Origin: Mustelus asterias
Lineage: Eukaryota
Assembly: GCF_964213995.1 (NCBI RefSeq)
Contig: NC_135812.1
Coordinates: 46,438,001-46,502,000 of the forward strand
Direction of reading: 5' to 3'
DNA: 64,000 nt
Position 1 is the first letter of the stretch. Every line of letters starts with the position of its first letter. A program made the position numbers and the translations under genes. The notes under the pieces are model-generated. The model ran no database searches and had not been told where the DNA came from. It was given only the letters and a program-made list of their open reading frames with translations. Below are positions 3,323 through 7,017 of the stretch, piece by piece.

Positions 3323-6100
3323 CTACGTAAAGAACCTACCTCTGATATCCGTCCTGTATCTCCCACCACGAACCCTATAGTTATGCCCCCTTGTAATAGC
3401 TCCATCCACCCGAGGAAATAGTCTTTGAACGTTCACTCTATCTATCCCCTTCATCATTTTATACACCTCTATTAAGTCTCCCCTCAGCCTCCTCCGCTCC
3501 AGAGAGAACAGCCCTAGCTCCCTCAACCTTTCCTCATATGACCTACCCTCCAAACCAAGCAGCATCCTGGTAAATCTCCTCTGCACTCTTTCCAGCGCTT
3601 CCACATCCTTCTTATAGTGAGGTGACCAGAACTGCACACAATATTCCAAATGTGGTCTCACCAAGGTCCTGTACAGTTGCAGCATAACCCCACGGCTCTT
3701 AAACTCCAACCCCCTGTTAATAAAAGCTAACACACTATAGGCCTTCTTCACAGCTCTATCCACTTGACTGGCAACCTTTAGAGATCTGTGGATATGGACC
3801 CCAAGATCTCTCCGTTCCTCCACAGTCTTCAGAACCCTACCTTTGACCCTGTAATCCACATTTAAATTTGTCCTACCAAAATGAATCACCTCACATTTAT
3901 CAGGGTTAAACTCCATTTGCCATTTTTCAGCCCAGCTTTGCATCCTATCTATGTCTCTTTGCAGCCTACAACAGCCCTCCACCTCATCCACTACTCCACC
4001 AATCTTGGTGTCATCAGCAAATTTACTGATCCACCCTTCAGCCCCCTCCTCTAAGTCATTAATAAAAATCACAAAGAGCAGAGGACCAAGCACTGATCCC
4101 TGCGGCACACCGCTAGCAACCTGCCTCCAATCCGAAAATTTTCCATCGACCACCACCCTCTGTCTTCGGTCAGACAGCCAGTTACCTATCCAATCGGCCA
4201 ACTTTCCCTCTATCCCACACCTCCTCACTTTCATCATAAGCCGACCATGGGGGACCTTATCAAACGCCTTACTAAAATCCATGTATATGACATCAACTGC
4301 CCTACCTTCATCAACACACTTAGTTACCTCCTCAAAAAATTCTATCAAATTTGTGAGGCACGACTTGCCCTTCACGAATCCGTGCTGACTATCTCGGATT
4401 AATCCGCATCTTTCTAAATGGTCGTAAATCCCATCCCTAAGGACCCTTTCCATCAATTTACCAACCACCGAAGTAAGACTAACCGGTCTATAATTACCAG
4501 GGTCATTTCTATTCCCTTTCTTAAACAGAGGAACAACATTCGCCATTCTCCAGTCCTCTGGCACCATCCCCGTGGACAGCGAGGACCCAAAGATCAAAGC
4601 CAAAGGCTCTGCAATCTCATCCCTTGCCTCCCACAGAATCCTAGGATACATTTCATCAGGCCCAGGGGACTTATCGACCTTCAGTTTATTCAAAACTGCC
4701 AAGACATCCTCCCTCCGAACATCTATTTCCTCCAGCCTATTAGCCTGTAACACCTTCTCTTCCTCAAAAACATGGCCCCTCTCCTTGGTGAACACTGAAG
4801 AAAAGTATTCATTCATCACCTCGCCTATCTCTACTGACTCCATACACAAGTTCCCACTACTGTCCTTGACCGGCCCTAACCTCACCCTGGTCATTCTTTT
4901 ATTCCTCACATAAGAGTAAAAAGCCTTGGGGTTTTCCTTGATCCGACCCGCCAAGGACGTCTCATGTCCCCTCCTAGCTCTCCTAAGCCCCTTTTTCAGC
5001 TCATTCCTTGCTAACTTGTAACCCTCAATCGAGCCATCTGAACCTTGTTTCCTCATCCCTACATAAGCTTCCCTCTTCCTTTTCACAAGACATTCCACCT
5101 CTTTTGTGAACCATGGTTCCCTCACTCGGCCATTTCCTCCCTGCCTGACAGGAACATACCTATCAAGGACATCCAGTATTTGTTCCTTGAAAAAGTTCCA
5201 CTTTTCATTCGTTCCTTTCTCTGACAGTTTCTGTTCCCAACTTATGCCCCCTAATTCTTGCCTAATCGCATCATAATTACCTCTCCCCCAATTGTAAACC
5301 TTGCCCTGCCGTACGGCCCTACCCCTCTCCATTGCAATAACAAAAGACACCGAATTGTGGTCACTATCTCCAAATTGCTCTCCCACAACCAAATCTAACA
5401 CTTGGCCCGGTTCATTTCCCAGTACCAAATCCAATGTGGCCTCACCTCTAGTCGGCCCATCCACATATTGTGTCAGGAAACCCTCCCGCACACACTGCAC
5501 AAAAACTGCCCCATCCAAACTATTTGACCTACAAAGGTTCCAATCAATATTTGGAAAGTTAAAGTCCCCCATGACAACTACCCTGTGACCCCCACACATA
5601 TCCATAATCTGCTTAGCAATTTCTTCCTCCACATCTCTATTACTATTTGGGGGCCTATAGTAAACTCCTAGCAACGTGACCGCTCCTTTCCTATTTCTAA
5701 CTTCAGCCCATATTACCTCAGTGTGCAGATCCCCCACGAAGTGCCTTTCCGCAGCCGTTAAACTATCCTTGATTAACAATGCCACTCCTCCACCTCTTTT
5801 ACCAGCTTCCCTACACTTAGTGAAACATCTATACCCCGGAAGGTCCAACAACCATTCCTGTCCTTGTTCTACCCACGTCTCCGTAATGGCCACAACATCG
5901 TAGTCCCAAGTACCAATCCACGCCCCAAGTTCATCTACCTTGTTCCGGATGCTCCTTGCATTGAAGTAGACACACTTCAACCCACCTTCCTGTCTACCAG
6001 TACCCACCCTTGACCCTGATACCTTCCCCAATATCTCACCACCCTCACTGACTTCTGGACTACAACTCCTTTTCCCACTCCCCTGACAAATTAGTTTAAA
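3323..6100 (-). CDS. CR1 ORF2: AP endonuclease + reverse transcriptase (truncated by TAG at 3323-3325; frame continues to TGA at 3197-3199)
   Basis: APE motifs YFNARS, AITETW, GVYYRPP, MGDFN, SDH; RT motifs [38 protein letters not shown]1 C-terminus LEYCVQFWSP, LFSLERRRLRGDLIEVYK. Confidence 0.95.
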   Translation of the reverse strand, partial: FKLICQGSGKRSCSPEVSEGGEILGKVSGSRVGTGRQEGGLKCVYFNARSIRNKVDELGAWIGTWDYDVVAITETWVEQGQEWLLDLPGYRCFTKCREAGKRGGGVALLIKDSLTAAERHFVGDLHTEVIWAEVRNRKGAVTLLGVYYRPPNSNRDVEEEIAKQIMDMCGGHRVVVMGDFNFPNIDWNLCRSNSLDGAVFVQCVREGFLTQYVDGPTRGEATLDLVLGNEPGQVLDLVVGEQFGDSDHNSVSFVIAMERGRAVRQGKVYNWGRGNYDAIRQELGGISWEQKLSEKGTNEKWNFFKEQILDVLDRYVPVRQGGNGRVREPWFTKEVECLVKRKREAYVGMRKQGSDGSIEGYKLARNELKKGLRRARRGHETSLAGRIKENPKAFYSYVRNKRMTRVRLGPVKDSSGNLCMESVEIGEVMNEYFSSVFTKERGHVFEEEKVLQANRLEEIDVRREDVLAVLNKLKVDKSPGPDEMYPRILWEARDEIAEPLALIFGSSLSTGMVPEDWRMANVVPLFKKGNRNDPGNYRPVSLTSVVGKLMERVLRDGIYDHLERCGLIRDSQHGFVKGKSCLTNLIEFFEEVTKCVDEGRAVDVIYMDFSKAFDKVPHGRLMMKVRRCGIEGKLADWIGNWLSDRRQRVVVDGKFSDWRQVASGVPQGSVLGPLLFVIFINDLEEGAEGWISKFADDTKIGGVVDEVEGCCRLQRDIDRMQSWAEKWQMEFNPDKCEVIHFGRTNLNVDYRVKGRVLKTVEERRDLGVHIHRSLKVASQVDRAVKKAYSVLAFINRGLEFKSRGVMLQLYRTLVRPHLEYCVQFWSPHYKKDVEALERVQRRFTRMLLGLEGRSYEERLRELGLFSLERRRLRGDLIEVYKMMKGIDRVNVQRLFPRVDGAITRGHNYRVRGGRYRTDIRGRFFT

Positions 6101-7017
6101 CCCCCCTGAAGAGCCGTAACAAATTTCCCTCCGAGGATATTGGTGCCCCTCTGGTTCAGGTGCACCCCGTCCTGTTTGTACAGGTCCCACCTTCCCCAGA
6201 ACGTGTTCCAATTATCCACGTATCTGAAACCCTCCCTCCTACACCATCCCTGCAACCACATATTTAACTGCACTCTCTCCCTGTTCCTCAACTCGCTATC
6301 ACGTGGTACCGGCAACGTACCAGAGATGACCACATGTTTCGTCTTGGCTCTCAGCTTCCAGCCCAGCTCCAGAAATTCCTGCTTTAAATCCCCGTCCCTT
6401 CTCTTACCTATGTCATTGGTACCAATGTGCACCACGACTTGTGACTGTTTCCCCTCCCCCTTCAGAATCTGGAAAACACGGTCTGAGACATCACGGACCT
6501 TGGCATCCGGTAGGCAACATGCCATCCGTGAGTCTCTTTTGCTGCCACAGAACCTCCTATCTATCCCTCTAACTAACGAGTCCCCAATAACTATCGCCCT
6601 CCCGCTCTCCCCCTTTCCCTCCCGAGCCACAGAGACGGACACAGTGCTGGAGATCCTCTCACTGCGGCTCCCCACTGGTATGTCATCCCCCTCAACCGTA
6701 TCCAAAGCGGAATACTTGTTGCTAAGGGGAACGACCACAGGGGATCCCTGCACTGACTGCTTCCTCCCAGCCCCTCTCACCGTCACCCATCTGTTTTCAA
6801 TCCTCGGAGTAACTGTATTCCTAAAGCTTGTGTCTATGGCCATCTCTGCGTCCCTGATGATCCTAAGTTCATCCAACTCCAGCTCCAGTTCCCTAACACG
6901 GTTTTGGAGGAGCTGCAGATGGGTGCACTTCCCACAGGTGTAATCAGTAGGGACACTGTCGTCGTCCCTCACCTCAAACATAGTGCAAGAGGAACATTGC
7001 ACTGCCTGCACACCCAT
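6091..7017 (-). CDS. CR1 ORF1: zinc finger + coiled coil + SGNH esterase domain
   Basis: CxxC..CxxC (CSSC...CGKC), heptad segment LQNRVRELELELDEL, SGNH blocks IVIGDS, HIGTND, DGVH. Confidence 0.93.
   Translation of the reverse strand: MGVQAVQCSSCTMFEVRDDDSVPTDYTCGKCTHLQLLQNRVRELELELDELRIIRDAEMAIDTSFRNTVTPRIENRWVTVRGAGRKQSVQGSPVVVPLSNKYSALDTVEGDDIPVGSRSERISSTVSVSVAREGKGESGRAIVIGDSLVRGIDRRFCGSKRDSRMACCLPDAKVRDVSDRVFQILKGEGKQSQVVVHIGTNDIGKRRDGDLKQEFLELGWKLRAKTKHVVISGTLPVPRDSELRNRERVQLNMWLQGWCRREGFRYVDNWNTFWGRWDLYKQDGVHLNQRGTNILGGKFVTALQGGLN

Follow-up and report, generated by a model that had tools for sequence, protein, structure and literature searches.

The window analysed here is a 64,000-nt stretch of the Mustelus asterias genome (NCBI RefSeq assembly GCF_964213995.1, contig NC_135812.1, forward-strand positions 46,438,001 to 46,502,000), and it carries on its minus strand a near full-length copy of a CR1 long interspersed nuclear element (LINE). 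The element has two open reading frames (ORFs), ORF1 encoding an esterase and ORF2 an endonuclease and a reverse transcriptase (RT) (Table 1). In the ORF1 frame the junction reads CAG GGG GGT TTA AAC TAA, with the stop at 6093-6091, and in the -1 frame it reads GGG TTT AAA CTA ATT TGT. A preliminary description of this DNA had reported that ORF1 ends in GGG GGT TTA AAC TAA with ORF2 in the -1 frame, and re-reading of the minus strand confirmed this arrangement. U UUA AAC is a heptamer of the X XXY YYZ form lying in the upstream frame. The -1 frame is open from a TTG at 6211 to 3323. Its first ATG (5605) is codon 165 after the heptamer, and the endonuclease motif YFNARS begins at codon 44; the ATG thus lies 121 codons beyond the start of the motif, deep in the endonuclease as had been described. 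We propose that low-level programmed -1 frameshifting on U UUA AAC probably yields an ORF1-ORF2 fusion in CR1.

Table 1. Features of the CR1 copy and of its ORF1/ORF2 junction (window positions)
Feature	Position	Strand	Remarks
CR1 LINE copy	3124..7235	-	Near full-length; 5' end approximate
ORF1	6091..7017	-	308 aa; ATG 7017; Cys-rich N-terminus; SGNH esterase (Pfam PF13472, E 3.9e-12); C-terminus ...GGLN-stop
Overlapping heptamer G GGU UUA	6097..6103	-	ORF1 frame
Slippery heptamer U UUA AAC	6094..6100	-	ORF1 frame; conserved signal
ORF1 stop TAA	6091..6093	-	Abuts the heptamer; CTA (Leu) in the -1 frame; TAG, TGA or TAA in relatives
G-rich motif	6073..6083	-	Starts 10 nt past the heptamer; offset constant in amniote-type loci
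Linker	5969..6090	-	ORF2 frame, no AUG; about 41 codons, from shift site to endonuclease; poorly conserved
ORF2 frame	3323..6211	-	-1 relative to ORF1; stop to stop; first ATG 5605
APE-type endonuclease domain	5357..5968	-	Pfam PF03372, E 1.1e-22
RT domain	3797..4516	-	FADD motif; Pfam PF00078, E 7.4e-33
Premature ORF2 stop	3323..3325	-	About 41 codons short of the homologous end (comparison with P0233 and P0234)
3' end of element	3124..3140	-	Short simple repeat ...GTTCTATGTT, no poly(A)

TTTAAAC by itself is common in the window, with 12 matches on the minus and nine on the plus strand (21 in total). Under ORF1's own codon usage, a strict heptamer in frame on its final two codons would be expected with p ~0.0013, and exactly U UUA AAC with ~6e-5. 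To examine the junction in relatives, we used a metagenome scan that returned at least 80 loci, 25 of them amniote-type by best match; eight of these stop short of the junction, leaving 17. A single assembly supplied ten of the 17 and a second one three, so that the loci represent different subfamilies and not independent hosts. Among the matches listed, T TTA AAC is kept at the ORF1 end in 14 of the 17 loci, and the stop after it varies (TAG, TGA or TAA) and is mutated in two copies. The three loci missing the heptamer (L010, L012 and L025) look decayed. Elsewhere upstream in the amniote-type ORF1s, TTA accounts for 15 of the 137 Leu codons and AAC for 16 of the 38 Asn codons. The endonuclease is in the -1 frame in L008, L013, L016, L017 and L035. 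Among 11 junctions checked, five have a -1 frame closed by a stop one or two codons upstream of the heptamer, so that ORF2 cannot be entered earlier. The preliminary description had also listed G GGU UUA as a second, overlapping in-frame heptamer. Both heptamers do lie in the ORF1 frame, but amniote loci carry GCT, TCT, TGT or ACT before TTA, and G GGU UUA was rejected as a conserved site.

Published consensus sequences show the same signal. In the part of the consensus table of the PMC13343379 supplement available to us, read by eye in 400-letter cells whose rows visibly lose bases and whose frames were not judged, TTTAAACT(A/G) has 30 matches, comprising 18 stop-bearing junctions, one that lacks the stop and 11 at other places. 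The hosts of the 18 CR1/Crack junctions are chimaera, sharks, rays, bowfin, a teleost (Crack), coelacanth, bullfrog, lizard, alligator and crocodile; this count has no denominator, since the search used the motif itself. When consensus rows of the same part were located by upstream coding DNA instead, the heptamer was present in five of five. In addition, TTTAAACTA(A/G) occurs 5' of ORF1 in the dogfish consensus rows SquAca_CR1-18 and SquAca_CR1-3 of that supplement. In the public sequencing runs X14 and X11, a related subfamily swaps 70 nt of the linker for 76 nt with the frame kept. None of the 40 variants listed of 135 falls within 6080-6106, as expected by chance, and the read depth of run X1 peaks at 6078-6104; neither was used as support.

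The end of ORF1 was also compared at the protein level. A Leu-Asn (LN) C-terminus is found in 34 of 48 ORF1 homologues, and the rest are mostly truncated. Adding the 150 best matches of a profile search to the homologues gave 195 proteins, of which 114 end no more than 45 residues from the catalytic DGLHL motif and were counted; 73 of the 114 end in LN, including named snake, turtle and swallow proteins. The residue before LN is variable (G, A, Y, T, S, D, H, N, F, C or V), and in 72 of the 73 a codon ending in U is available for it. Among representatives at 50% identity there are no exceptions in 41 ends, as against 15% K/Q/E/M/W at neighbouring positions (p 0.0013, uncorrected for kinship). 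All eight GN-ending proteins end in QGN, compatible with G GGA AAC, and two proteins end in SKN, compatible with A AAA AAC. In an esterase tree, built by a quick search with the junction residues left out, one clade of 17 rows (SH-aLRT 93) holds eight QGN, two SKN, one FLN, one LEN and five unexplained ends. The QGN, SKN and LN ends thus suggest a signal swapped among X XXA AAC forms, the QGN and SKN heptamers being deduced from protein alone.

A distant clade provides an arrangement in which the heptamer is uncoupled from the stop. L018 has an in-frame TCA AAA AAC 40 nt before its ORF1 stop (L018:1810-1852), and from there its -1 frame can be read into the endonuclease motif with no AUG on the way. 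At the position of the L018 heptamer, W-x-K-N appears in four related proteins, ahead of a variable tail. This arrangement would be accounted for by a -1 shift and not by a stop-start mechanism. A -1 frame without its own start codon is found in the window copy and in L018, and many relatives have in-frame AUGs. Taken together, the heptamer is conserved with its silent positions, or replaced by compensating forms. The conservation that had been predicted for the junction was borne out by the 14 amniote-type loci and the vertebrate consensus CR1s, and it extends in a form not foreseen to distant relatives with other X XXA AAC heptamers.

In sister clades, a different signal occupies the junction. 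We picked 22 non-amniote loci in which the end of ORF1 could be recognised, others being bacterial-like or disrupted by frameshifts or truncation. ORF1 stops with TGA in 21 of the 22 and with TGA-C in 18, and the endonuclease motif is in frame 0 in 13, four of which lack a preceding Met. The TGA-C loci fall mainly in two tree clades separate from the heptamer clades. TGA-C(U/C)A with ORF2 in the same frame occurs in L006, L014, L019, L039, L043, L045, L046, L050, L056, L057, L059, L060, L065, L074, L075 and others. UGA-C is a leaky stop context, and these junctions look like candidates for leaky-stop readthrough. The presence of two different recoding signals at the same junction suggests that the fusion is the needed product.

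According to the proposed mechanism, most ribosomes would terminate ORF1 at ...Leu-Asn-stop. In a minority, the tRNA-Leu and tRNA-Asn on UUA AAC would re-pair with UUU AAA while the adjacent stop is being read, and translation would resume at CUA. The predicted product is an esterase-linker-endonuclease-RT fusion with the junction ...GGLN-LICQGSG..., of ~1,270 aa in an intact relative, and the outcome would be a low ORF2:ORF1 ratio comparable to that of retroviral Gag-Pol. Speculatively, help might come from the stop next to the heptamer and from the G-rich motif at +10. The geometry, the conservation with silent positions, the X XXA AAC exchange and the AUG-less window copy are all observed, and from the conservation we infer the slip, the fusion protein and its level.

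Several results weigh against this mechanism. Viral 3' stimulatory structures usually lie 5-9 nt downstream of the heptamer, and no stimulatory structure was detected downstream in the window (folding z 0.11 and 0.30). Meanwhile, 13 folded junctions gave z from -0.71 to +0.75, and consensus folding of 10 junctions gave 0 shared pairs; the folds used take no account of pseudoknots. The structured-stimulator test having failed, the CR1 site would be a variant and not a canonical cassette, and the shift efficiency is probably low. At the protein level, 26 of 81 representatives lack a terminal Asn, which is only partly explained, and the QGN and SKN forms have the protein-level basis given above. 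A natural in-frame fusion was absent among 23 longer protein matches, in a search that was uninformative; these matches are mostly bird gene models without the esterase end or with an esterase at their own C-terminus. In-frame AUGs also occur near the junction. In seven of 14 amniote-type loci (among the matches listed) they are located 2-8 nt beyond the first base of the stop, and they form UAAUG in L035 and in three of the 18 junctions from the available part of the consensus table. Where the -1 frame of a bird-type locus stays open as far as the endonuclease motif, an in-frame Met always precedes the motif (four of four loci), and the linker of the shark-type homologue P0234 contains two internal Met. 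An AUG upstream of the endonuclease is thus present in several related families, though not in the window copy or L018. Therefore, reinitiation could act in some families, alone or beside the shift. The frameshift interpretation of the preliminary description is supported by the heptamer conservation, with the qualifications that one of its two heptamers is not conserved, that the G-rich tract has no predicted structure and that the AUGs upstream of the endonuclease in some related families tell partly against it.

The G-rich downstream tract had been suggested as a stimulator; its position is indeed conserved, but no structure is predicted for it. In the rows, which were chosen for the heptamer, G occupies the three ORF2 third-codon positions of the motif in 13 of 14, 12 of 13 and 11 of 13 cases, compared with 36-38% third-position G in four ORF2s. 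A G-quadruplex is predicted in just two of 13 junctions. No common long-range pairing partner of the G-run was found, the best duplex sites differing by locus, and a comparison with Rfam gave four matches, all far below the gathering score. The motif may be a protein-bound unstructured stimulator, or may merely reflect a need for Gly-x-Gly in G-rich DNA. Some bird-type families (L008, L016, L017, L022 and L034) have an imperfect inverted repeat ~22-50 nt past the ORF1 stop; it does not occur in the window and is too distant from the heptamer for a usual stimulator.

Termination-reinitiation of the kind described for SART1 or L1 would place a restart in the -1 frame at an AUG overlapping or near the ORF1 stop, or at a near-cognate codon (AUU in the window copy), and would give a separate ORF2p, with the heptamer as a pause or register element. 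The AUGs near the stop speak for it, and the -1 frame is that of a UAAUG stop-start, where the window copy has UAAUU. According to the parts of the papers available to us, reinitiation was experimentally tested for SART1 (PMC3708506) and proposed for L1 (PMC2881922), and L1 ORF2 can do without its AUG (PMC1965478). However, the codon after CUA varies whereas the heptamer is conserved, and reinitiation offers no cause for fixed silent positions 5' of the stop or for X XXA AAC swaps. An AUG overlapping or adjoining the ORF1 stop is lacking in the window copy and is not family-wide, and in L018, whose heptamer and stop are 40 nt apart, the endonuclease motif is reached without any AUG. UGGGA, a TURBS-like motif, lies within 130 nt upstream in only seven of 13 junctions, at varying offsets. 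In addition, downstream structure of the kind that SART1 needs, as described in the available part of PMC3708506, was not found at these junctions. We consider reinitiation unlikely to account for the signal.

It is quite improbable that the motif is kept for a non-decoding reason, as a C-terminal Leu-Asn for ORF1p, as a protein-binding or processing site in RNA or DNA, or as a 3' splice site through which another transcript feeds ORF2. The distance from Leu-Asn to the catalytic DGLHL is constant in vertebrate families, but a protein need would permit synonymous codons, and TTA, AAC and the preceding T are fixed; moreover, LN is missing from whole clades, and tails measure between 25 and 39 residues. 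The ORF2 frame is entered close to the junction in ab initio bird gene models; a splice acceptor was rejected because AG is absent there in the TAA- and TGA-ending families; a single contig spanning the junction without a joint in one run, guessed to be RNA, is weak evidence in the same direction. The motif and G-run do resemble a sequence signal and not a structure; a binding site would, however, not account for a switch to A AAA AAC that preserves the -1 phase. An artefact of a decayed copy, in which a single ORF was broken by a one-base indel in the G6/T3/A3 run, is scarcely credible: the window copy has a premature ORF2 stop and its junction lies in short homopolymers, but the stop and phase recur in homologues and in the published consensus, family-wide conservation that already refutes this explanation, and no junction indel is among the variants listed for four sequencing runs. 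Transcriptional slippage on the G6 run was rejected, the run not being conserved.

As for the element itself, the ORF1 esterase is homologous to the zebrafish LINE ORF1 esterase structure PDB 4C1B (E 1.3e-26), and a coiled coil in ORF1 is probable as judged by eye. ORF2 matches PF14529 besides PF03372 and PF00078. The ORF2 homologue P0233 is 94% identical and extends ~41 codons past the stop of the window copy. In view of this premature stop, the window copy is probably inactive; it is otherwise open and young-looking. The heptamer signal is a family trait. A TATA-like TATAAAAGG lies at 7173-7181 on the minus strand, ~160 nt 5' of the ORF1 ATG within the 5' region of the element. An older repeat surrounds the copy, and no clear target-site duplication flanks it. 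CR1 elements have a 3' terminus in a short simple repeat and not in poly(A). In the part of PMC13343379 available to us, poly(A) is given only for Zenon, in agreement with this criterion. Assignment to CR1 is suggested by elasmobranch ORF1 homologues, the esterase tree and, as judged by eye, the similarity of the junction to consensus rows for CR1 from Pristis and Scyliorhinus; in the first homologue search, vertebrate-named ORF1 homologues came exclusively from sharks and rays.

The window holds no second copy covering ORF1 or the junction. Older 5'-truncated LINE fragments related to ORF2, none of which reaches ORF1, lie at 54019-55684 (+), 50190-51216 (-), 7748-8318 (-), 15613-17055 (+), 43598-44204 (+) and elsewhere. 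Two proteins with bacterial labels, P0007 (Pseudomonas aeruginosa) and P0235 (Carnobacterium maltaromaticum), are 69% and 61% identical to ORF1 and ORF2 of the window LINE, respectively, and probably represent host DNA contaminating bacterial assemblies. Scans of viral contigs gave zero relatives of the element, and a prokaryote genome scan gave only three weak, unrelated esterase matches.

Returning to frameshifting on U UUA AAC, a description of it in CR1 was not found in full-text literature whose coverage excludes the 1997 chicken and turtle CR1 papers, Repbase reports and most subscription journals. "CR1" is absent from the first two-thirds of PMC5009743 and "frameshift" from the available parts of PMC13343379 and PMC3905857, and CR1 frameshifting was likewise not found in the parts seen of PMC4255032, bioRxiv 788562, PMC4120745 and PMC6609765. 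In the parts consulted, translation of LINE ORF2 is an acknowledged open question for which reviews describe reinitiation (PMC5009743, PMC3708506, PMC2881922). CR1-group elements make up 22-34% of elasmobranch genomes according to the available part of PMC13343379, and CR1 makes up 11.8% of the chicken genome according to that of PMC11835228. CR1-group elements are the dominant retrotransposons in most vertebrates, and, if the proposal is true, their RT would be made like retroviral Gag-Pol. The real ORF2 product would then bear a membrane-binding esterase, and ATG-based ORF2 annotations would be wrong. A 7-nt signal conserved from cartilaginous fishes to birds would also be a case, in cellular genomes, of a long-conserved -1 site without a structured stimulator. 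A broader version is possible but doubtful: esterase LINEs across animals may make a Gag-Pol-like fusion through interchangeable signals (U UUA AAC, G GGA AAC, A AAA AAC and UGA-C), and the vertebrate CR1 shift may be stimulated by the G-rich motif 10 nt downstream and not by structure, the motif probably being bound by a host protein or ORF1p, so that RT output could be tuned by the cell or by the element.

Among known systems, viral -1 frameshifting, as in coronavirus IBV and retroviral gag-pol, uses the same in-frame heptamers, a polymerase ORF in the -1 frame and a low fusion ratio (predicted for CR1), and according to the part of PMC5009743 available to us, U_UUA_AAC, A_AAA_AAC and G_GGA_AAC are among the most shift-prone heptamers for mammalian ribosomes. 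In contrast to the viral sites, CR1 is a non-LTR retrotransposon with no downstream hairpin or pseudoknot found, an adjacent stop in vertebrate families and an unstructured G-rich motif at +10. In the accessible parts of PMC5009743 and PMC5405496, recoding is proposed for the Drosophila HeT-A gag, and a +1 shift or reinitiation as well as readthrough for Paramecium non-LTR elements of groups 1-3; as described there, these cases concern neither CR1 nor a vertebrate, nor a family with a conserved canonical -1 heptamer at the ORF1/ORF2 junction. The UAAUG coupling of SART1 (PMC3708506) and the reinitiation of L1 (PMC2881922) are, in the parts consulted, like CR1 in their bicistronic LINE mRNA and in the dependence of ORF2 on ORF1 translation, and SART1 ORF2 is also in the -1 frame. 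However, SART1 and L1 give a separate ORF2p, whereas many CR1 families lack the AUG, and what is conserved in CR1 is the upstream heptamer.

The zebrafish LINE ZfL2-1 shares with CR1 the homologous esterase ORF1 represented by the structure cited above. It belongs to the L2 clade. Its ORF2 is reportedly expressed, in work ascribed to Kajikawa and colleagues in 2012, by suppression of the ORF1 stop, which would likewise give a fusion. L006 and L014, with UGA-C and ORF2 in frame, resemble ZfL2-1; the latter differs from CR1 in frame-0 readthrough instead of a -1 shift.

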